A model generated the notes under the pieces. That model was not told the DNA's origin. It did no database searches and saw nothing but the letters and a program-made list of their open reading frames with translations. From IMG/VR virus record IMGVR_UViG_3300046314_000711: DNA of 64,000 nt. The stretch is one strand, 5' to 3'. How positions within the stretch are numbered: position 1 is the stretch's first letter; every line of letters begins with the position of its first letter. Origin of the DNA: a virus. This document shows positions 19,397 to 49,579 of this stretch, one piece after another. A program made the translations under genes and the position numbers.

Positions 19397-19568
19397 TGTG
19401 CAATATAAAACATCAATGATTGCCAAGCGTCCAACAACCTGGGACTTATCGTTTACTACACCACCATTGCTGTACTCTGCTGATAATATAGCAGCATTGT
19501 TAACGAAATTGCAGCCGTAAACTACTGCCGAATCTTTAGTTCGGCAGTTTCACGCCGCTCACACATAT

Positions 19569-34213: not shown

Positions 34214-34316
34214 GCGCTTGTAATTCAGTGGTTAGAAGGTCACCCAGCTATGATGGCACGATACGCCGTAAAAGCACTGGCTCTGTTGGACGTGGGTTCG
34301 AATCCCACCAAGCGCG
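34214..34316 (+). tRNA. tRNA-like RNA with extended anticodon arm (identity unclear)
   Basis: GCGCTTG/CAAGCGC, canonical D and T arms, about 50-nt anticodon region. Confidence 0.65.
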
Positions 34317-38079: not shown

Positions 38080-38460
38080 TTATCCTTGTTCAGCTATATA
38101 TTTAGCTATTGTTTCGGTCGAGGCATCCCCAGTAGAACAAACAAAATAACCAGATGACTAAAATATACAATTCTTCCAAAAATGTTTTCTCAGTTCGGAG
38201 CTGTGTAAGAACCAAACTTTTGCAGTAGTCGTTTGTTTCAATAATCTGACAATTTGTGAAACTGACACATTTGGCGAGTAATCAACCAGTAAATGGATAT
38301 GATCTTTGTCCACTTCCATTACTTGTATTTTGAAATCGGCTGTTTGATTTGTTAGTATTGTATCTTTGATGGTCTGTATTAGTTGTGGCTTAGACAGAAG
38401 TTTCTTTCTATACTTGACGCAGAACACAATATGGCTTTTGAGTGTAGCTTTTCTCCCCAT
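38080..38460 (-). pseudogene. tnpA: Y1 HUH transposase with in-frame TAG at the conserved Trp (F*SSGYF)
   Basis: HIVFCVKYR, DHIHLL; after the TAG at 38158-38160 the frame continues SSGYFVCSTG...KYIAEQG. Confidence 0.85.
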
Positions 38461-38529
38461 TTTGATGGTATATTTTCAATTTTGTATAAATATATTTATG
38501 TCAATCAAATCAACTGCATAAATAATAGT

Positions 38530-39804
38530 ATGAAACAGCTGCTCGCTTACAAATATAGGATTTACCCAACAGAAGACCAACAAATCCTTCTGAGTAAAAC
38601 CTTTGGCTGTAAACGGGTAATATTCAACCATTACCTAAATGTGCAACAAACAAATTTCAAGAACAAAGAAAAGCACCTGAGCAACTATGACATCAATAGA
38701 GACATTACTAAACTGAAGGATGAGAAGGACTGGTTACGGGAAGTAGATTCTATTGCATTGCAGATGGCAGCAGAAGACCTATCGTTGGCATATGACAATT
38801 TCTTCAAATCAACTACTGGTAAGAGAAAGGGTCCGAAGATAGCGGCTCCTAAGTTCAAAACCAAGAATTCTCGGCAGTCGTATAGAACTCGTGGGGTTCG
38901 TATCAATGAAAATGGTTCTTTACAAATACCAAAACTAAAAGCAGTAGAAGCAGTCATCCATAGAGAAATTCCAGGTGATTCGACAATCAAATCAACAACC
39001 ATATCAAAGAATACGGATGGAAGATATTACGCATCGATTTTAGTTGAAACAGAAGTAGCATTAAAGCCAACGACTGGTAGAGAAGTTGGTTGCGATGTGG
39101 GTCTAAAAGATTTACTCATCACTTCAGATGGGATAAAATTCAAAAGACCGAATGATTTGCTAAACATTGTGAAAACAAAACAATTGTTGAAGGCAAAACA
39201 AAAGCAGTTTGCAAGAACTGATAAAGGCAGTGAAAATCATGAATCAATTCGACTCCAAGTAGCAAGATTGTACTCAAAGATCACAAGACAACGAAATGAA
39301 TATTATCATCTAGTATCAAACTACTTAGTCGATAATTATGATTCCATCTACGTTGAAGATTTGTCGAGTAAGAATATGCTACAAAACAGGAAGTTGAGTA
39401 GAGCAATTCACGAGGCAGCATGGGCCACACTGACTGGAATGATTTCATACAAATCAAATCAGGCAGGTAGGACATATCATCGAATTAGTAGATGGTATCC
39501 GAGCAGTAAGACTTGTAGTTCATGCAATTACAAACTTGAAAAGCTCGATCTTGGAACCCGAGAATGGACTTGTCCTAACTGTGGAGTCTTTCACGATCGG
39601 GATCTAAATGCAGCAAAGAATATACTTCGTGTTGGTCAGATTGACTGCTACGAAGAGGTAATAGAGTCGCAAGCAACAGGCGATTTGGAATTAAAAATTC
39701 CATTGGCCCTACAGAAAATGACTAGTAAAATCGAGAGATCTGGCATATGCTTGTCAGTTGGTTATGGGAGTGGGCAAGCTGCACGATCTTTAGTCGTGCA
39801 GTAG
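38530..39804 (+). CDS. tnpB: RNA-guided endonuclease TnpB
   Basis: AYKYRIYPT, RuvC D/E/D (GCDVG, VEDL, DRD), zinc finger CSSC...CPNC. Confidence 0.93.
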   Translation: MKQLLAYKYRIYPTEDQQILLSKTFGCKRVIFNHYLNVQQTNFKNKEKHLSNYDINRDITKLKDEKDWLREVDSIALQMAAEDLSLAYDNFFKSTTGKRKGPKIAAPKFKTKNSRQSYRTRGVRINENGSLQIPKLKAVEAVIHREIPGDSTIKSTTISKNTDGRYYASILVETEVALKPTTGREVGCDVGLKDLLITSDGIKFKRPNDLLNIVKTKQLLKAKQKQFARTDKGSENHESIRLQVARLYSKITRQRNEYYHLVSNYLVDNYDSIYVEDLSSKNMLQNRKLSRAIHEAAWATLTGMISYKSNQAGRTYHRISRWYPSSKTCSSCNYKLEKLDLGTREWTCPNCGVFHDRDLNAAKNILRVGQIDCYEEVIESQATGDLELKIPLALQKMTSKIERSGICLSVGYGSGQAARSLVVQ

Positions 39805-40526: not shown

Positions 40527-41327
40527 ATGATGTATAACAACAAGTGTGTAGTTGCTGCTAAGGCAAACGGTAAAGTTCTCCGCGAATTTAAAGATACTAT
40601 TTTCGTACCCTTTGGTAGTGAGTATTCACTACTAATCAAAAATCTAAACTCAGTCCGAGCAATTTTTAACATCTATATTGACGGTGATAATGTTGTTCCA
40701 GGTGGACTTGTTCTAGCTGCTGGTCAGGAGATTGATCTCGAACGCAGCATCAAGAACGGAAATCTCAACGAAGGAAATAAGTTTAAATTCATTTCTCGCA
40801 CAAGTGATATCGAGAATCACCGCGGAATAAAGTTAGAAGATGGTATTATTCGGATCGAGTACCAGTTTGAAAAGGTGTATCAACGCCAAGATGGTATCCA
40901 ATGGAATACTGACTTATACGGCTGCCCAATCACATTCGGTAATGCGCAAGTACCGCAAAGTTCTATTGTGCGCGGAATGAGTAATATCAACATTGCTGGA
41001 TCTGCGAATTGTGTTGCAACATTAGATGGTGGTGCATCTGCGCAGAATATGACAATGCTCACTGCAACCGCACAATCCGTGAATGATGTTGGTATTACTG
41101 TACCAGGTGGCAAAAGCGAGCAGAAGTTTGATACAGTGTCTTGGTTCCCAACAGAGATAGAAAAGCACACAATTGTGCTCAAAATACTTGGTGAGACCGC
41201 CGACAACAAACCTATTCCAACTCCCGTGACGGTGAAAAGTAAGCCCAAATGCACAAGCTGTGGTAAGGTGAACAAAGTTGGATCAAAATTCTGCAACAGT
41301 TGTGGCACTGGTTTGGATCTGTTTTAA
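40527..41327 (+). CDS. Hypothetical protein with C-terminal zinc ribbon
   Basis: Beta-rich N-domain; CTSCG...FCNSCG. Confidence 0.75.
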   Translation: MMYNNKCVVAAKANGKVLREFKDTIFVPFGSEYSLLIKNLNSVRAIFNIYIDGDNVVPGGLVLAAGQEIDLERSIKNGNLNEGNKFKFISRTSDIENHRGIKLEDGIIRIEYQFEKVYQRQDGIQWNTDLYGCPITFGNAQVPQSSIVRGMSNINIAGSANCVATLDGGASAQNMTMLTATAQSVNDVGITVPGGKSEQKFDTVSWFPTEIEKHTIVLKILGETADNKPIPTPVTVKSKPKCTSCGKVNKVGSKFCNSCGTGLDLF

Positions 41328-41434
41328 CCATCTCGCATATATAGTAGTATCGAGATCAAGTCTTCCAGAACTTTTTTAATCTGGCTGGACACCGCCAACG
41401 GGGAGTCTGTAAGCTAACAGTTGGAAAGATTTAT

Positions 41435-41508
41435 GCAGGCATGGTGTAAAAGAAACTCATAACTTTGCCAAAGTTAAGTCCCCGGAGCATTACCGGGTGC
41501 CTGCTCCA
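41435..41508 (+). tRNA. tRNA-Gly(GCC)
   Basis: GCAGGCA/TGCCTGC, loop TTGCCAA, TCCA. Confidence 0.85.
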
Positions 41509-41534
41509 ATCACAATAGTATGTGTGTGCATAGA

Positions 41535-41608
41535 CGCGCAGTAGGGAAGTAGCTATCCCACCTGGCTCATAACCACGGAGGTCGCTGGTGCAAATCCAGC
41601 CTGCGCAT
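41535..41608 (+). tRNA. tRNA-Met(CAU), initiator-like, extended acceptor
   Basis: C1:A72 mismatch, loop CTCATAA, GCTGG-TGCAAAT-CCAGC. Confidence 0.75.
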
Positions 41609-41627
41609 CTATGCATACTTACAAAAA

Positions 41628-41733
41628 GGGGTAGGTTCAGCAACCTTAAAATATGGCTGAAGTCAATGGGCTTGCCCAACGATCTCAAACTGGAGTTGTT
41701 GCCCAGTTAAAACAAGCAGCTAACAACTACCCC
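41628..41733 (+). ncRNA. CAGC-motif small RNA candidate (copy 3)
   Basis: GGGGTAG/CTACCCC terminal stem followed by TTCAGCAACC. Confidence 0.5.
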
Positions 41734-41791
41734 GTTGTGTACAAAGTGATAGTGATAGATAGTGGAATAATATGATGCAAGATGGCTGCGC

Positions 41792-41874
41792 TCACCAGTA
41801 GAGGAATTGGTAAACTCACCTGACTGTTAATCAGACGCTTAATTGCACTGTTGGTTCGAAGCCAACCTGGTGAG
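41792..41874 (+). tRNA. tRNA-Asn(GUU) with long variable region
   Basis: TCACCAG/CTGGTGA, loop CTGTTAA, canonical T-arm. Confidence 0.85.
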
Positions 41875-42551
41875 CACAGCTGATTTTGCATCGCGATAGA
41901 ATCCCCCTTAGGACCGTTTGATGTCAACGGTAGGGTGGCGTAGGCTGCTCAGGCGTCCGAGTAGTTGCCGTTAGCAATAGGCGTTATTACACTGCTTAAC
42001 AAGCTGTGGTGATGCTGCGGGATAATGAGCAGACGCTCCGATAAGGCGCCTCCGGATTTGTAACCGGATCATTTTAAAATACTCAAAATGACCGTCAACT
42101 ACTGCACGACCAAAGATCCGGCAGTTTTACGTACACACCCGATAAATATAATAAAAACTCAAACAAAATGACCATCTTTTCTTGGATCACTAAACCGCTG
42201 CGCGACATTGCCGCCTTGCAAACTCAGCACGATCGCATAGCTCGACTAGCACTTGACTTGCAAACGCAGTGCAATGATCGTGATGACTATATTAAACAAC
42301 TGAAAGCTCGTATCGATCACATTGAAGGCGTGATCAGAACTCACACGTTCTAACATCACTCGGTATTGCGGCAACGATGGGTTGAGCACAATACCCCAAT
42401 CCCTTATGATAGACTTAATACTACACCAACAGAGCTAGTAACCGAGACAACTCTGCTAATGACAATAAACTGCTGACAAAGTCGATAAATTCCTTCTCAG
42501 GATTTGCAGTTAGTTGGGTGTGGTACTTTATTAACTACCAATGGAGTTTAC

Positions 42552-43066
42552 ATGACAGAATTTTTCCTAGGCCTTGTAACTGGCTATTTGTTTACGTGGC
42601 CAGCAATCGCTATATTGATCGCATTGGGTATCATGTTCGAATCAGCCTCGAGTCACGCAACAGCAGCTTTCCTTGGTATCGTTGCAGCAGTTAGTGCGTA
42701 TTTTACTTCCAGCTTGATATCCAATCAATGGTGATGTATATTGTGGCGTACTTTGGACTGGGATTTGCGTGGAGCATCTGGCGTTACCGTCGACACATAA
42801 AATCGATCGTCGAGCAATACCGTAACGACGATCGATTTTATGTGCGTAAAGGTGCTGCTGATCGTCTACATCCGCTGGCAATGTTGAGCACATTAACTGC
42901 CTGGGTAATCATCTGGCCATTCAGCATGGTTGAGAACTTGGCTGGTGATGTTATCAACATGATCCGTACTGCTATCTCGACTGTGTTCCGTAGCGTGTAC
43001 AACCGCATCTACGAATCTGCTGTGCGCGACTTGCTGCCAACGCCTGTTGATGGCACTGAAGTATAA
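42552..43066 (+). pseudogene. Membrane protein apparently split by a 1-nt frameshift
   Basis: Adding one T in TATTTTAC (42699-42706) fuses the two hydrophobic ORFs. Confidence 0.5.
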
Positions 43067-43090
43067 TAGTTTGAAAATTGAAAGAAACCC

Positions 43091-43525
43091 ATGAGCCTTA
43101 TTACAGAAATCAAGTCTGCGCAGTTGACTGCTCGTAAGGACCGAAATGGTCCAATGGCATCACTGCTAACTACCCTCATCGGTGAAGCAGAAATGGTCGG
43201 CAAGAATGCTGGCCGTGAAGTGCTTGATGCAGAAGTGGTTGCAACAATCAAAAAGTTTATCAAGAACATTGACGAAACAATCAAAGCACTTGGTGTGGAA
43301 GATGCTCGTGCACAGGCTGCACAAGACGAACGCGTTGTTCTGGAACACTTTCTACCGCGTCAAATGGACGAACAGCAACTGACCGAAGCAGTGACTGCTA
43401 TCAAGGCTGAACTGAATGCTGGACAAAAAGATATGGGCAAAGTGATGGGTCTATTGAAGACACGACACGAAGGCCAGTATGATGGTAAGATGGCTTCTAC
43501 TGTGGTCAAAGCAGTACTCGCCTAA
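43091..43525 (+). CDS. GatB/YqeY domain protein
   Basis: LEHFLPRQM, KDMGKVMG, DGKMAS.VVK. Confidence 0.9.
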   Translation: MSLITEIKSAQLTARKDRNGPMASLLTTLIGEAEMVGKNAGREVLDAEVVATIKKFIKNIDETIKALGVEDARAQAAQDERVVLEHFLPRQMDEQQLTEAVTAIKAELNAGQKDMGKVMGLLKTRHEGQYDGKMASTVVKAVLA

Positions 43526-44217
43526 ATAGAGATACGGAGGTGCGACAGCCCAATAGGTTCCACATTTTGTGGGTCACCACTGTCGCTTTATATGTTGAGT
43601 ACACACTCGGTAACTGGTATAAATAGAGATGGGTGGTTACACCCATACACACATACACAGGAGTTATACCAATGTTTTTACTAGCATATCTAATCGAAAA
43701 AATCAAGAAGTCTTTCAAACCCACCACTTACGGTGAAGAATTGGAAACATTCGTTGTTTCTCACAACCCATCTACATCAGCTGATGTAGAATACTGGATT
43801 ACCCAGTATGATCGTAGACAACAACGTGCCCGTGGTGGTATGTTTAGTTATCGGTAATATTTTTGTCGATACATTTCATACACACATACAGGAGAAATCT
43901 AAAATGGCTACTACATCTAAATCTGCCGGCAAATCCGGCTTTGAAATCCGTCTCGAAGTTCTGCAGATGGCAAAAGAGCTTGTCGAAAAGCAAGCTAAAC
44001 TAACTACTGACTTCGCTACCCAAGCATTCACACTTGCTATTCAATCAAACCAAGCTACTATTAACCAGTGGAAAGAATTTTCTCCCGCTGCTCTTACCGT
44101 AGATGAAGTAATGGCAAAGGCAACTGAGCTATATAAGTTCATTGCCCCAACAACTACAACCAAGTAATATGACCTTTTTTACATCCCACTCGAAGTGTTC
44201 CCGATTGTGTACATTAC

Positions 44218-44589
44218 ATGAAGGAGAACACAATGAGCAGAACTTTCCGAAGAAAGAACTACGAGGCTGAAAACAATACCTCGTGGGATGTGCAAGGCCG
44301 AAAGACAGCTGGGTTTTATACTGAGCGCGTATCCCACTGGGTTGCTAGTGGTCAGTACTTCCATACGTACGAGATCCCGACAAAAGCACAGTTCTACAAA
44401 AAATATACTTGGGCACATGGCGAAAGCAAGTCCGCGAACAGTTGGAGTCCGGGTCATAGCTTTCGTCACCCACGCATGACTCAAAATCGAGCTATCACGC
44501 GACGAGAATTGCATAAATATCGCATGATTCCTGACTATGAACCAATGGTAGAAGCGAATCCTCGCAGCTGTCGTTGGGATTGGAGTTAG
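44218..44589 (+). CDS. Hypothetical basic protein
   Basis: AAGGAG RBS before MSRTFRRK (true start probably 44233). Confidence 0.6.
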   Translation: MKENTMSRTFRRKNYEAENNTSWDVQGRKTAGFYTERVSHWVASGQYFHTYEIPTKAQFYKKYTWAHGESKSANSWSPGHSFRHPRMTQNRAITRRELHKYRMIPDYEPMVEANPRSCRWDWS

Positions 44590-45155
44590 AAAAGGACTAC
44601 AAGATGAGCACAGAGCAGGACAAAGTCAAGCATAGCAAGCGGATCCACAACAAGCAAACGCGTACTCATCGTCAGTGGACGCTATCGAAACAAATATTCA
44701 AAGAAGTGGTAAAAGAGCCACACGTCTATCACAAGAGATCATTCGCAACCTGTGGTAACAGCAATTGCGTAATGTGCATGAATCCACGTCGCGCAACAGG
44801 CGAGCTCACTATTCAAGAACAACGATTGTTTCAAGATCGACTACAGGAGTATGTTGAGCACAAGGACGCTTTATGTGATGATTGATTTATGAGCAGTTCT
44901 GCCCGAATTCCGGTCTGGTAATAGACAGAACTGCAATAGTGGAGTGGACAAAAGAACGGTGCATGTGGAGCGAAGGTACGTAAGCGTTGAAGCATGCACT
45001 TGCTGTAAGGAATGCCTGATTTAACAGGACTCCCTAGTGTCTAAGTTAGGGTTAATAGCCTACTACTAGCGGATGCGTAAGTTCGAAGCCGGAACAGCGG
45101 GCTCAAACCTCCCAGGTAGGTGGAAAGCCTACACAATATTAGGATATTTTTGGCA

Positions 45156-45656
45156 ATGAAAATAACGCAAATATTAGAAAGTTTTCCAGTAATGGAGATG
45201 CTGAATACGAGACTAGATGAACCAGTTGTGTGGGAGCAAGAGCATCAGCAGGATATCTGCAAGTGTTCAATCGATGGTGGAAGCATTAATCTCAAACTGG
45301 TGATATCAGCCATAACATATAAGCAGTTATCAGGATTGCGAGTTGGTTTCTTATTGTGGAACGGTACTGATTATGTTGAACACATTGGAGCTGTATCAAC
45401 GATCAGTTCTGCAAAAGTAATTGGTGCGGTTACAAACGCCCTGCTTAATCGGTTAAATGAGTACGAGTGGGATTTTATTGTAGCAGATGCAAAAGATGCT
45501 GTTCCAATCCGGATGAAGTTATACACTCGCATCGTGGAACGAATCGCTCGGTCAAATAGTTGGCAGTACGGTTCTGGAGTTGTTAACAATATAGGGATTG
45601 CAGTAGTCTCTAAACAGTATAGTTGTCAAGACATAATCGATAACATTCAACATTGA
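45156..45656 (+). CDS. Hypothetical protein, paralog family A
   Basis: KVIGAVTN...WDF...AKD..R.KLY..IVERIAR. Confidence 0.75.
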   Translation: MKITQILESFPVMEMLNTRLDEPVVWEQEHQQDICKCSIDGGSINLKLVISAITYKQLSGLRVGFLLWNGTDYVEHIGAVSTISSAKVIGAVTNALLNRLNEYEWDFIVADAKDAVPIRMKLYTRIVERIARSNSWQYGSGVVNNIGIAVVSKQYSCQDIIDNIQH

Positions 45657-46102
45657 GCACAATCTCATAAACTTGTAAAGTAAGATTTTAAACACTGAAA
45701 CGCACAAAGGTAAAAAATGAAACCAACCAAAACTTTCAAGCTCAGCAAAACGACCAAACGTATGATGTCAACTCTAACCAACGCAGAAGCGCGCAATGAA
45801 TTTAAAAGAATTATGATCCAGGGGCAACTCGCTGCTCAGGTTGTAATCAAAAAAGAAAAAGCAGATAAGTAAACTCTGTTTAACCAGATCCAGGGGTGGA
45901 TCCAGCAACATAAATTAAAATGGACTGATAGTTTGATAATTTCCAGCTTGTCTGGAAACTCGACTAGATATGTGCCTGTCCAGACATGACAGAGATATGG
46001 CAGAGAATGGTAGGCTCTGCATGAAAAAAACAAGCACACTGAAAAGTGTAAAGAATTGCTAAAACAATTTGCATCGACCGCACCACCCCGTTAGTTATTT
46101 TA

Positions 46103-46226
46103 GGGAAGCTTGCAGCCAACTTTATACACTAGACTTTTAATCTAACCCGTAAAAAGGCTTCCCGTTTAATTTTAGGGTTACTTCCAGCCACCATCTTCAT
46201 TTGTACTGAAAATAAAACAGTAACCC
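46103..46226 (+). ncRNA. Two tandem CAGC-motif small RNA candidates with anticodon-like hairpins
   Basis: GGGAAGCT/GGCTTCCC (46103-46163) and GGGTTACT/AGTAACCC (46175-46226), each with CAGCCA after the 5' stem. Confidence 0.65.
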
Positions 46227-46251
46227 GGCTTATATCAAGGAGCACATAGAC

Positions 46252-47685
46252 ATGACAACAGCAACATTTGCACACGCAGTTTTAACTCAACCAACTACAA
46301 CAACCAATGGCATGAAAGCATTCGCTGGCACTGGTAACGCTTGTGTTCAACTTTTCTATGCGATCGGTGCGATGCGTGGTAAAGACGTTATTCCATTGTT
46401 TAAAGCAGCCTATGCAGAAAACATGGAAATTGCACTGCGAATCGCACAATGGAGCCGTGACATTCGTGGTGGAGCAGGAGAGCGTCAAATTTTCAAAGAT
46501 ATTCTTGCTCACTTGGAAATTACGAATCAAGATCAGCAAGTACGAGCACTAATCGATAAGATTCCAGAAATTGGGCGTGCTGATGATATGTTGATCAATT
46601 GGAAGACAGTGGGGGTTCGTAACTATGCATTTACTGTATATGGGGAACAACTTCGCAACGGTAATGGACTATTCTACAAATTCCTACCTCGTGAAAAAAG
46701 CGCAAAGAAGCGTCTCGCAGCAGAACTCCGTTCATTCTTCGGATTGACTCCTCGTCAGTACCGTAAGCTGGCTTCTGCTAATACTACTGTTACCGAAACA
46801 CAGATGTGTGCGAAGGATTGGGATAACATCAACTTTAGCCACGTGCCTTCTGTTGCTGCCTCACGTTACAAAAAAGCATTTAAAAGAAATGCTCCCGTTG
46901 TGTTTACTGAATATGTTGAAAAACTGACCAAAGGCGATCCGTCCGTAAAGGTAAACTCAAGCGCAATCTTCCCGTACACAGTGATCAAAGGCTGGCATTC
47001 TTCTCGCATTGATCCAACGATTCGTGCTCATGTGAATGCACAGTGGGCAGCACTACCAAACTACGTAGGTAATGCGAGTATCTTGCCATTAGTTGATGTA
47101 TCTGGTTCGATGAATTGCCCAGCTGGTGGAGACACTTCAGTGACTTGCCACGATGTTGCACTATCACTCGGTCTGTACCTGTCTGAAAAGAATACTGGTA
47201 AGTTTAAAGATATGTTCCTGACGTTCTCCGAAGATCCTGAACTACTGCACCTAACTGGTGACGTGATGGATCGTTTGGAAACAATGGATCGTAGCAAATG
47301 GGACATGAGCACTGACATTGTCAAGGCACTTGCTAAGATTTTGGAAGTCGCTGTTGCTGGTAACGTACCTCAAGGTGAAATGCCAGAAATCTTGTGTGTG
47401 ATGTCCGACATGCAATTCAATGAGGCAGCAGAGGCAAACGATAGTGCGATGGAAAGCGTGCGAACTCAATATGCTGCAGCCAACTACACATGCCCAAAGT
47501 TGGTGTGGTGGAATCTAAATCACAAAGGTAACGTACCTGTGACAGCCAATGAGCAGGGCGCAGCACTTGTATCGGGGTTTAGCCCAGCGATTGTAGCAAG
47601 CATTCTGAGTGCGGATCCAGATGATTTCACACCATATGCATTAATGATCAAATCCGTCTGTGTACCGCGATATGATGTGAAATAA
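46252..47685 (+). CDS. DUF2828-family protein (helical repeat + vWA; Ro60/TROVE-like architecture)
   Basis: TTNG, RDIRGGAGER, VPSVA, MIDAS DVSGSM, FLTFSEDP, SDMQF, WWNL, VSGFS. Confidence 0.85.
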   Translation: MTTATFAHAVLTQPTTTTNGMKAFAGTGNACVQLFYAIGAMRGKDVIPLFKAAYAENMEIALRIAQWSRDIRGGAGERQIFKDILAHLEITNQDQQVRALIDKIPEIGRADDMLINWKTVGVRNYAFTVYGEQLRNGNGLFYKFLPREKSAKKRLAAELRSFFGLTPRQYRKLASANTTVTETQMCAKDWDNINFSHVPSVAASRYKKAFKRNAPVVFTEYVEKLTKGDPSVKVNSSAIFPYTVIKGWHSSRIDPTIRAHVNAQWAALPNYVGNASILPLVDVSGSMNCPAGGDTSVTCHDVALSLGLYLSEKNTGKFKDMFLTFSEDPELLHLTGDVMDRLETMDRSKWDMSTDIVKALAKILEVAVAGNVPQGEMPEILCVMSDMQFNEAAEANDSAMESVRTQYAAANYTCPKLVWWNLNHKGNVPVTANEQGAALVSGFSPAIVASILSADPDDFTPYALMIKSVCVPRYDVK

Positions 47686-47713
47686 GGTGCTCTAACGTAG
47701 TTTGGAGCATGTT

Positions 47714-47821
47714 GGGACTCTAGCATAATTGGTAGTGCTGGGAACTCTTACGGAGCATCTGCACAAGCGGGTGTTCAAAATAATTCCTAAGGCCTCGGTT
47801 CGAACCCGGGGGGTCCCACCA
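47714..47821 (+). tRNA. tRNA (Ile/Met, CAU if spliced) with 32-nt hairpin insert in the anticodon
   Basis: GGGAA-CT-C-[47748-47779]-AT-AA-TTCCT; intact D, T and acceptor; ACCA. Confidence 0.75.
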
Positions 47822-47825
47822 AGTT

Positions 47826-47849
47826 AAAAGGCTCCAATTGGAGCCTTTT
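47826..47849. terminator. Bidirectional intrinsic terminator
   Basis: AAAAGGCTCC-AATT-GGAGCCTTTT between convergent units. Confidence 0.85.
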
Positions 47850-47850
47850 C

Positions 47851-48201
47851 TTATTTGCAGTGTAATCCGCTTGGATCGAATGTATCCAAAAATTTAACAC
47901 ATACCCATCGAGCAACGGTTTTTCGCCATGAATCTTGCTCCGTGCAGCACCACATGCTTAGTCGTTGTGTTACTAACCACTGTCGTGGTAGTTCCAGAAA
48001 CAAAATCGACATTACAAATATATTGACAAGCACATCAACGAGTGCGAGTAAGCCAATTACTGGATAACCCAGCACAAGTGCGGGAAGAGAGATAGTGTGA
48101 TTATCTTTTGCTCTAACTAGCGCACACCCCGCAAGGTAGAACATCCATAACACATATAGCGATCCAATAAAATACAGTACCGTCCAACCTACATAGTTCA
48201 T
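47851..48201 (-). CDS. Membrane protein
   Basis: Two hydrophobic segments; DPSGLHC C-terminus. Confidence 0.7.
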   Translation of the reverse strand: MNYVGWTVLYFIGSLYVLWMFYLAGCALVRAKDNHTISLPALVLGYPVIGLLALVDVLVNIFVMSILFLELPRQWLVTQRLSMWCCTEQDSWRKTVARWVCVKFLDTFDPSGLHCK

Positions 48202-48980
48202 TTCACATCTCCTTTTTTAAATAATTGCCATAACCACATCCCAGCCGGTAGCAACAGTGTTGACCATATCCACTGCATGTGCTCTTTCAACATTGCAAGT
48301 AGCCGCTGTTGTGGTGCGATCTCCACCGTTATAGTACTCTCAAACGTCTTAATAGACCGTTCTGCACGATCGTTATCTACAGTCACGATTGCGTTGATGG
48401 ACAAATGTATATCGTGCTTACCAGGTGGTGCACCTGACAGATCCCACTTCCACTCCGTAATCTCCGTCTCTGATAGTGCTTGACGATCTGGTGTAAGCGC
48501 TAGTACCTTAAAGTCTGGTGCAAGTAGAGTGACGTTGAGTATTTTCGACACCTGTATCACTGCTCGTGTCGAACTGTGAGTAGTTGTTGATATAGCAACT
48601 ATATTTGGATCGATCCGCAGTACAGCGTGTACTGTATCATTAACATTGGCTGTGGTAGGTGCTTCAAACGTCATCGTAGCACTTTTTAACTGAGATGACA
48701 CTAGATCCGCAGTCTGCTCCACGGTAGCACCTACTGACTTTGGTGCGATGTTGAGTTGTTTTGCTACTTTGTTAATTAGCGTTGGTGTAGATACAACCTT
48801 TGCGAGAGTACTCGAAGTCTCGCGCTCATTGACTGGTGCTGATGTAGATCCTGCATTGGTAGACTGACGCAATATTTCTTCAACATTAATATTGAGTGCA
48901 GTAGCTGGTGCTGTGGTAATCATCGGGAGTTGTGAACATCCTGCCAGTAGAGCTACAATAAATAAAAGTGTTCGTTGCAT
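48198..48980 (-). CDS. Putative lipoprotein with C-terminal TM
   Basis: Lipobox LLAGC; TAAATA upstream on the minus strand. Confidence 0.7.
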   Translation of the reverse strand: MQRTLLFIVALLAGCSQLPMITTAPATALNINVEEILRQSTNAGSTSAPVNERETSSTLAKVVSTPTLINKVAKQLNIAPKSVGATVEQTADLVSSQLKSATMTFEAPTTANVNDTVHAVLRIDPNIVAISTTTHSSTRAVIQVSKILNVTLLAPDFKVLALTPDRQALSETEITEWKWDLSGAPPGKHDIHLSINAIVTVDNDRAERSIKTFESTITVEIAPQQRLLAMLKEHMQWIWSTLLLPAGMWLWQLFKKGDVK

Positions 48981-49063
48981 GATAATTCTCGTATGAGCAA
49001 CTATTTACTACTAGTATGTTGCGACTGCACACATGATTGAAACAAGCAATAGAAAGCAAATCG

Positions 49064-49579
49064 GTGAAAATTAACCAAATACTAAATCAATTAGCAGAGG
49101 CGAATTTTGATACTAATCTCACTAATCTGTCCTCGTGGCACAAAAAATCTGATGCAAATACGCATCTCCGTGTAGGTCAGTTAGGAGAGCTTAGTGTAGT
49201 GGTGTCGGTTAAATTTACTCACATTGCTCCACTCAATCTCATTGGAGCGGGTGTTGAATTTGGCATACTTGCACCTGGTGCTACAGAATACGCTTACGAC
49301 ATTGGTTCGGCACCAACTGTTCCAACAGGGCAAATATTTGGTGCCGTAATCAATGTGTTGCGAGGAGATCTGCCCACCCACTGGGATTTTATGTATGCAG
49401 AAGCAAAAGATAGTGTCCCAAGACGAGTGCGCTTGTATACTGCATTATTTTCTCGGTTTGCTTCACATTACAATATGGTAGTCGGGTCCGTGGCTGATCG
49501 ACACAGTGGTGGCGTAGTTATGGCACGGCAGCAGGACATGGAGCCGATCAGGCAACTTGCTTCACAGGTATTTCGGTAA
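49064..49579 (+). CDS. Hypothetical protein, paralog family A
   Basis: QIFGAVIN...WDF...AKD..R..LY..LFSRFA. Confidence 0.7.
   Translation: MKINQILNQLAEANFDTNLTNLSSWHKKSDANTHLRVGQLGELSVVVSVKFTHIAPLNLIGAGVEFGILAPGATEYAYDIGSAPTVPTGQIFGAVINVLRGDLPTHWDFMYAEAKDSVPRRVRLYTALFSRFASHYNMVVGSVADRHSGGVVMARQQDMEPIRQLASQVFR

Follow-up and report, generated by a model that had tools for sequence, protein, structure and literature searches.

In the 64,000-nt stretch of viral DNA analysed here (the window), taken from the minus strand of the 109.8-kb virus record IMGVR_UViG_3300046314_000711 of IMG/VR, a set of structured elements lies upstream of a gene whose product is predicted to have the Ro60 fold, and these elements are proposed to be the partner RNAs of that protein, a reading to which we assign a probability of about 0.75. 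Each element, here called a handle unit, is closed by a 7-9 bp helix whose sequence is free, has a CAGC(A/C)A strand opposite one rich in A, ends with a trailing G/U, and carries an exchangeable payload. Most likely, the units serve a divergent Ro60 as partner RNAs that resemble Y RNAs. From bacteria to humans, Ro60 and Y RNAs have been conserved, and human Ro60 is a major autoantigen.

Four units were found in the window, three of them 26-360 nt and one 4.5 kb upstream of the Ro60-like gene, all on the + strand (Table 1). The original prediction had described two tandem elements (46103-46163 and 46175-46226, here units 1 and 2) with internal hairpins at 46130-46144 and 46196-46210, a similar longer element at 41628-41733, and a G trailing all three. 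All of these were found where they had been placed, the longer element with the same layout, and the two tandem elements proved to belong to an array of three, of which unit A (45893-46089) had been missed. The closing-stem sequences of the four units are all different. In unit 1, GGGAAGCUU pairs with AGGCUUCCC (9 bp, including one G-U), in unit 2, GGGUUACU pairs with AGUAACCC (8 bp), and the dispersed unit at 41628-41733 is made of a closing stem plus TTCAGCAACC. The internal hairpin stems of units 1 and 2 have 4 bp, one fewer than the 5 bp that relatives usually have. Over all 109.8 kb of the record, a detector that looks for a closing stem plus the CAGC(A/C)A motif, and demands pairing, gave 5 credible units only, every one on the strand of the Ro60-like gene. 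The fifth, at 19490-19547 in the reverse complement of the record, is 2.1 kb to the left of the window, has the consensus AGGAU...AUCCU ends and a Lys-like arm as payload (UUUGA-CUUUUCU-UCAAA, with a pyrimidine at position 37), and adjoins tRNA-His and tRNA-Met genes. The units occupy tRNA-rich regions with short U-rich spacers, as tRNA arrays do; 16 tRNA genes are present within the window and 20 across the record.

At the protein level, the product of the downstream gene gave only DUF7788 (2e-41) and DUF2828 (3e-23) in Pfam at E<=0.1, without reaching the TROVE signature, and five homologues from distant cultured phages all carry DUF2828 and DUF7788. The AlphaFold (AF2) model, calculated from an alignment of 111 homologous sequences, reached a predicted local distance difference test score (pLDDT) of 94.3 and a predicted template modelling score (pTM) of 0.93, and the 13 best PDB matches in Foldseek were all Ro60/TROVE structures, which bears out the earlier proposal that the DUF2828 protein is Ro-like. 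The model displays the architecture of Ro60, namely a HEAT-like helical-repeat ring followed by a vWA domain with the MIDAS motif (for metal-ion-dependent adhesion site), whose residues D282, S284, S286, T354 and D386 are invariant in the alignment of 111 homologues. The kinship with Ro60 is seen by fold comparison only, since a phmmer search against PDB sequences gave no match, and a profile of the 111 homologues reached Ro60 chains at E 0.02-0.12 only, over the MIDAS region. This combination of a fold match with barely visible sequence kinship indicates that the protein, as modelled, is of Ro60 architecture in a separate sequence family. The family is large, with 5616 cluster representatives in HMMER at E<=0.001 and members in 708 cultured phage records by tblastn, including Felix O1-type, P100-type and Campylobacter phages; the mycobacteriophage copies are already annotated as 'Ro-like RNA binding protein'.

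In two other records, the Ro60-like gene was found in two same-strand pieces about 1.1 kb apart (G003, 114278-116778, query residues 13-135 and 133-476; G005, 46811-49221, query residues 5-119 and 143-475), which suggests an intron, an intein or an inserted homing gene.

At the level of sequence, the case against chance is one that rests on comparison with the units of other phages. The relatives sampled were 80 IMG/VR loci encoding homologues of the Ro60-like open reading frame (ORF) with 48-78% identity. At least one unit was present on the gene's strand in 68 of the 80 loci, and at a stricter threshold 114 units lay on the gene strand versus 2 on the opposite one. Of the units counted, 141 lay upstream of the gene, 49 of these no more than 100 nt from its start, and 13 lay downstream. 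Among 40 aligned short units, CAGCAA was invariant in all 40 and the seven outer pairs were formed in all 40, and two of these positions showed 3-4 pair types. For the phage units, the consensus reads AGGAUnnnU(U/A)CAGCAA ... nnnAUCCUGUU; units A and 41628 of the window read CAGCAA, and units 1 and 2 read CAGCCA and end in CCCGUU rather than CCUGUU. 

A covariance model (R1) was built from these 40 short units, all of other phages, with no sequence from the window. Searched over the whole window on both strands with filters off, its best match was 46100-46167 (49.2 bits, E 1e-8), followed by 46172-46230 (23.8 bits, E 0.005), with all others at E>0.4. The match of R1 to the 41628 unit was partial (E 5.4) because of the long payload, and unit A gave no R1 match in the whole-window search. 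Support for these two long units comes from the stem-plus-motif detector and from alignment with L030, the closest relative (78% identity). Unit A and the unit at the same position in L030 have 81% column identity, with compensatory changes in two internal hairpins, and in its 5' handle and the type of its 3' end the 41628 unit agrees with those units of relatives that have long payloads. Unit A folds at -53.9 kcal/mol (z -3.2) and the 41628 unit at z -2.0. A blastn search of the region against cultured phages gave three tiny, uninformative matches. In Rfam, searched over the window at the gathering score and over 41300-48200 at E<=10, none of the units was matched and only tRNAs were found, a negative that speaks neither for nor against kinship with the Class I RNAs of dictyostelids.

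The tRNA cloverleaf is absent from the four units, which received no tRNA call from ARAGORN or Rfam, and it is the anticodon arm alone that is imitated, in units 1 and 2. Two simpler readings of the units were discarded: they are not tRNA pseudogenes, having no acceptor, D or T arm, and they are not plain terminators, as no U-run directly follows the stems and the payloads are conserved.

The association was also observed in the reverse direction. A search of IMG/VR for the handle pattern gave at least 120 loci; of the 120 listed, 36 hold a Ro60-like gene in the fetched stretch, always on the strand of the unit, and when 12 further records were searched whole, 9 held the gene elsewhere, including 3 of 3 complete records. 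In cultured phages, the surroundings of the gene were analysed in 16 genomes, where units were found 43 times on the gene strand versus 6 times on the opposite strand. Beside the gene, R1 matches with E<0.01 were observed in Synechococcus phage BUCT-ZZ01 (three units upstream, best E 2e-9), Aeromonas phage LAh_9 (nine matches), Klebsiella phage phi1_175008, Listeria phage P100plus, Mycobacterium phage BobsGarage, Staphylococcus phage S-CoN_Ph6, Campylobacter phage NCTC12673, Citrobacter phage KMM4 and E. coli phage SUSP1, and 31 of the 32 matches at this level in cultured phages were on the gene strand. One of the refuting conditions in the original prediction, an absence of stem-CAGC(A/C)A elements near other DUF2828 genes, came out in its favour, such units being present in the metagenomic relatives and in cultured phages whose hosts span at least nine genera. 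In the Mycobacterium, Staphylococcus, E. coli and Klebsiella phages, units were found downstream of the gene. Since their place varies from phage to phage (before the gene, after it or among tRNA genes), the linkage has survived rearrangement.

By payload, the 119 unique units from the first 80 loci could be sorted into four classes. The first class has 50-66 nt and one hairpin; the second, of about 90-100 nt, has an anticodon arm and a T arm; the third, of about 115 nt, has a closed acceptor hairpin and a D arm in addition to the anticodon and T arms, and amounts to a tRNA in which the acceptor end is closed and the opening lies between the D and anticodon arms; and the fourth, of 130-220 nt, has other conserved structures. 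Arrays contain up to nine units with many payload types. Permuted-tRNA units of the third class were found in L025, L073, L019, BobsGarage (Mycobacterium), SUSP1 (E. coli) and phi1_175008 (Klebsiella). The Rfam YrlA model (RF02553) scored 39.3 bits in L025 (full model), 33.5 bits in L073 and 35.2 bits in phage phiM7, against a threshold of 69. The sub-threshold matches of the third-class units in L025 and L073 tie the family to the Y RNAs.

The short payloads are biased toward the anticodon arms of Lys-UUU, Thr-UGU and Arg-UCU. In 196 unique short units from 200 loci, the loop CUUUUAA was present in 24 units on 7 different stems, CUUGUAA in 15 units on 5 different stems, and CUUCUAA in 9 units on 3 different stems. 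Together, UUU, UGU and UCU make up 45% of the unique canonical-loop mimics versus 9% of 2148 tRNA genes in the same loci (odds ratio 8, Fisher p 2e-8, kinship among loci not corrected for). The commonest mimic is UUUGA-CUUNUAA-UCAAA. The earlier suggestion that the internal hairpins mimic anticodon arms is strengthened by the recurrence of identical 7-nt loops (CUUUUAA, CUUGUAA) in many units on different, compensating stems. By the loop tally, units 1 and 2 are typical of the family, one being of Lys type and the other of Thr type. A second recurrent short payload, CUUUU-AUUGGAA-AAAAG with close variants, was observed in many short units (for example L070 2537-2598, L067 1267-1324, L214 3107-3161 and L204 3403-3459), from metagenomic phages, Klebsiella phage phi1_175008 and E. 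coli phage SUSP1; its loop is Pro-UGG-like with A32.

Y RNAs encoded next to Ro60 have been described for bacteria and for 22 phages, in a survey that took in only genes annotated as TROVE and only RNAs that have the GNCGAA motif (Chen et al. 2014, PMC4201824). In Thermus phage phiLo, the genes for Yrl1 and Yrl2 lie upstream of the Ro60 gene, and the protein binds both RNAs (PMC12135203). The original prediction had likewise named the adjacency of Ro60 genes and their Y RNAs as known. The arrangement described here resembles these systems in the position of the RNA genes, on the strand of the protein gene and no more than a few kb from it (about 4 kb for YrlA), with tandem copies upstream being frequent as in phiLo, in the 5'-3' closing helix whose 5' strand adjoins a conserved single-stranded motif, and in the T arm, closed acceptor hairpin and D arm carried by the units of relatives. 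The differences are as follows. The phage protein belongs to Pfam DUF2828 and DUF7788, not TROVE; the conserved strand is (U/A)CAGC(A/C)A facing an A-run, instead of the GNCGAAN0-1G near the 5' end of YrlA that is the proposed Ro60 contact (PMC4201824); the window units have no tRNA-like domain (T arm, closed acceptor-like hairpin, D arm); YrlA had no match in 41300-48200 at E<=10, and even in relatives reached 33-39 bits versus the threshold of 69; and arrays of up to nine units with many payloads, including bare anticodon arms, have not been described for Y RNAs. Since phages were already known to pair a Ro60-type protein with Y RNAs encoded nearby (PMC4201824, PMC12135203), the pairing of RNA and protein seen here is a variant within the known Ro60-Y RNA kind. 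Neither an Rfam family for the handle nor a paper that connects DUF2828 proteins with an RNA was found, the literature search for DUF2828 giving unrelated papers and the search for 'Ro-like RNA binding' giving genome announcements only.

The handle also resembles the Class I RNAs of dictyostelids, which have about 60 nt, a covarying 6-bp 5'-3' helix, an 11-nt motif after the 5' strand, a variable interior and a CUGU end (PMC7919456), and for which the published search pattern is GTTGRCCTTACAGCAA ... GTCAACTG (PMC5054030). The 11-nt motif of these RNAs (type-I; Aspegren 2004) ends in ACAGCAA, and the pattern is close to the phage consensus. However, Class I RNAs are eukaryotic, have their own Dictyostelium upstream sequence element (DUSE) promoter and are reported to be unique to Dictyostelia; their known binder, Rnp1A, is an RNA recognition motif (RRM) protein, not Ro60-like; and units 1 and 2 of the window (CAGCCA, CCCGUU) fit less well than most relatives. 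A much wider proposal, in which handle RNAs and a DUF2828-type protein would form an ancient ribonucleoprotein (RNP) of the phages of most bacterial phyla and of eukaryotes, with the Class I RNAs as the eukaryotic partner and with phage payloads neutralising PrrC/PARIS-type nucleases, is regarded as improbable.

For the window, the docking analogy with Ro60 is drawn because of the fold, the same-strand neighbouring genes, the closing helix with its adjacent conserved strand, and the tRNA-like modules. The units would be transcribed as discrete small non-coding RNAs, and the constant handle would dock each RNA onto the Ro60-fold protein, as the conserved Y RNA stem docks onto Ro60. The exchangeable payload would then be presented to a third party, here as Lys UUU and Thr UGU arms and in relatives as whole permuted tRNAs. 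The function we prefer is interference with host enzymes that recognise anticodon arms, the RNAs perhaps baiting anticodon nucleases or providing a platform on which tRNAs are repaired. The function of Ro60 and Y RNAs in bacteria and phages is poorly understood, and with these units a second, larger phage branch of Ro60-like proteins gains a candidate RNA partner with a simple, searchable handle and many payloads. The bias toward arms cut by defence nucleases makes the question of what Y RNAs present, and to whom, experimentally concrete; several hosts are laboratory organisms in which binding, processing and knock-out phenotypes are directly testable; and, because the handle resembles them, the dictyostelid Class I RNAs, which have lacked an explanation for twenty years, may have a protein partner of this type that is worth seeking.

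Several observations weigh against units that act as partner RNAs. The window units have neither the GNCGAA motif thought to be read by Ro60 nor an Rfam YrlA match; the short units 1 and 2 fold barely better than shuffled sequences (z -1.7 and -1.5); no sigma-70-like promoter on the + strand was found before the array by a promoter scan; and no unit lies within 1.5 kb of the gene in Salmonella phage SE_PL and Aeromonas phage phiAS5. In some relatives, the handle encloses the gene's own ribosome-binding site. As for the statistics, the 100% pairing is partly built in, because the detector demands pairing, and the unit counts are not independent events, because many loci are related.

As to what a partner RNA would do, one rather doubtful possibility is that the RNP displays host-like anticodon arms to anticodon nucleases (PrrC/RloC, PARIS AriB), which would be occupied by them or cut them instead of tRNAs, with the phage's altered tRNAs sustaining translation. 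Phage T4 repairs tRNA-Lys cut by PrrC. Variants of tRNA-Lys/Thr/Asn in phage T5 escape PARIS AriB (PMC12409363), and the nuclease-escaping phage tRNAs resemble the units in their identities (Lys UUU, Thr UGU) and in the tRNA-rich phages that carry them. Those tRNAs, however, are functional and chargeable, whereas the units lack an acceptor end, mostly lack a D or T arm and cannot decode, so they would be baits or adaptors at most. The three top loops and the 8-fold enrichment of UUU/UGU/UCU over tRNA genes are what a bait would be expected to display, as is the divergent anticodon arm of the phage's own tRNA-Lys (UCCGG-UUUUUAC-CCGGU) next to the CUUUUAA-UC of unit 1, although unit 2, with U32 and C38, is not host-like and many units are without any anticodon-like payload. 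The pair A31-U39 was present in 17 of 25 mimics versus 26 of 108 of the phages' own Lys, Thr and Arg tRNAs, but A-U-rich stems may just mirror base composition. AriB also needs D-loop contacts, which bare arms lack, and its site UAAUC is present in only 6 of the 25 mimics, for which reason no specific AriB bait is claimed.

Equally tentative is a repair platform, of the kind put forward for cellular Ro60 and its tRNA-like Y RNAs, in which the tRNA-like payload would recruit RNA ligase RtcB/Rnl, kinase-phosphatase, CCA-adding enzyme or PNPase to RNAs held in the ring and so aid the repair or clearance of damaged tRNAs. A jumbo-phage survey calls the ROT/TROVE protein a repair platform with a tRNA-like partner (PMC7824862), and in phiLo, Ro60 and the Yrl RNAs bind host PNPase (PMC12135203). 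The gene lies in or next to tRNA clusters in most sampled phages, an RNA ligase gene adjoins it in Salmonella SE_PL, and an RtcB-type ligase is 1.3 kb away in Listeria P100plus, but no ligase gene was found in the 12 kb around the window gene. Enzymes that recognise the elbow or the acceptor end would also be poorly mimicked for by bare anticodon arms, which have neither, and the anticodon bias is left unexplained by repair.

It is very improbable that the units act in cis only, as leader or operator elements for translational self-repression by the protein and not as trans-acting RNAs. The array does sit in the 5' leader of the gene, and in the relatives L030 (1475-1535) and L064 (2705-2768) the handle encloses the Shine-Dalgarno sequence and the ATG; in Vibrio phage nt-1 (L201 3426-3462), a CAGCAA hairpin has the ATG in its 3' arm. 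Part of the family may thus act in cis, and for some units (L030, L064, perhaps nt-1) a role resembling that of an autoregulatory operator is likely. In the window, however, no handle encloses the start of the gene, where ACAGCAAC at codons 3-5 was without a partner strand of the kind seen in L030 and L064. Units also lie kilobases away among tRNA genes (41628) or, in the Mycobacterium, Staphylococcus, E. coli and Klebsiella phages, downstream, and the payloads are conserved, structured and tRNA-like. Least credible of all is a reading without any relation to the protein, in which the units would mark sites of processing or punctuation (RNase sites, transcript stabilisers) or be debris of decayed tRNAs, for although the tRNA-rich surroundings and short U-rich spacers recall tRNA arrays, the linkage holds at record level and in phage families that share little else and differ in gene order, the invariant CAGCAA and A-rich strands would be superfluous for a simple hairpin, and the strand bias is near-absolute.

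Table 1. Handle units, the Ro60-like gene and the features directly following it in the window.
Feature	Positions	Strand	Description
Dispersed handle unit, 106 nt	41628..41733	+	Between tRNA-Met and tRNA-Asn; GGGGTAGG-TTCAGCAA ... CTACCCC-G; long structured payload
Tandem unit A, 197 nt	45893..46089	+	GGGGTGG atc CAGCAA ... CCACCCC g; long structured payload
Tandem unit 1, 61 nt	46103..46163	+	9-bp closing helix, G-CAGCCA, UAGA-CUUUUAA-UCUA (Lys UUU type, 46130-46144), AAAAA, 3' helix, G
Tandem unit 2, 52 nt	46175..46226	+	8-bp closing helix, UC-CAGCCA, UUCA-UUUGUAC-UGAA (Thr UGU type, 46196-46210), AAAA, 3' helix, G
Gene of predicted Ro60-fold protein, 477 aa	46252..47685	+	Helical-repeat ring and vWA domain with MIDAS (model); Pfam DUF2828 and DUF7788; PHROG 850 'RNA-binding protein'
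tRNA-shaped RNA with 34-nt hairpin inside the anticodon loop	47714..47818	+	Directly 3' of the Ro60-like gene; Rfam tRNA 44.6 bits; fold z -3.5; no ARAGORN call
Terminator-like hairpin, then T-rich stretch	47826..47849	+	Closes the block of array, gene and tRNA-like RNA

The terminator-like site listed last in Table 1 is the only one within 45000-48300, and the tRNA-shaped RNA before it is probably in one transcription unit with the Ro60-like gene. A second tRNA-shaped RNA of this type was observed at 34214-34316 (Rfam tRNA 45.2 bits); like the first, it carries some 30-45 additional nucleotides within the anticodon loop or next to it, and neither was called by ARAGORN. In Synechococcus phage BUCT-ZZ01 (L202 4760-5020), two insert-bearing tRNAs follow the Ro60-like gene and have one inserted segment in common. 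In addition, a tRNA-like sequence with an atypical T loop and D arm (41435-41505, Rfam 40.8 bits, no ARAGORN call) lies just before tRNA-Met, and a 473-aa ORF in the tRNA-rich region (38383-39804), with HTH_OrfB_IS605, OrfB_IS605 and Cas12f1-like TNB domains, encodes a TnpB-type transposon nuclease. Between the dispersed unit and the tandem array, a gene encoding a YqeY-like protein was found (43091-43525, Pfam 9.6e-19), and the YqeY family is related to the tRNA-binding tail of GatB.

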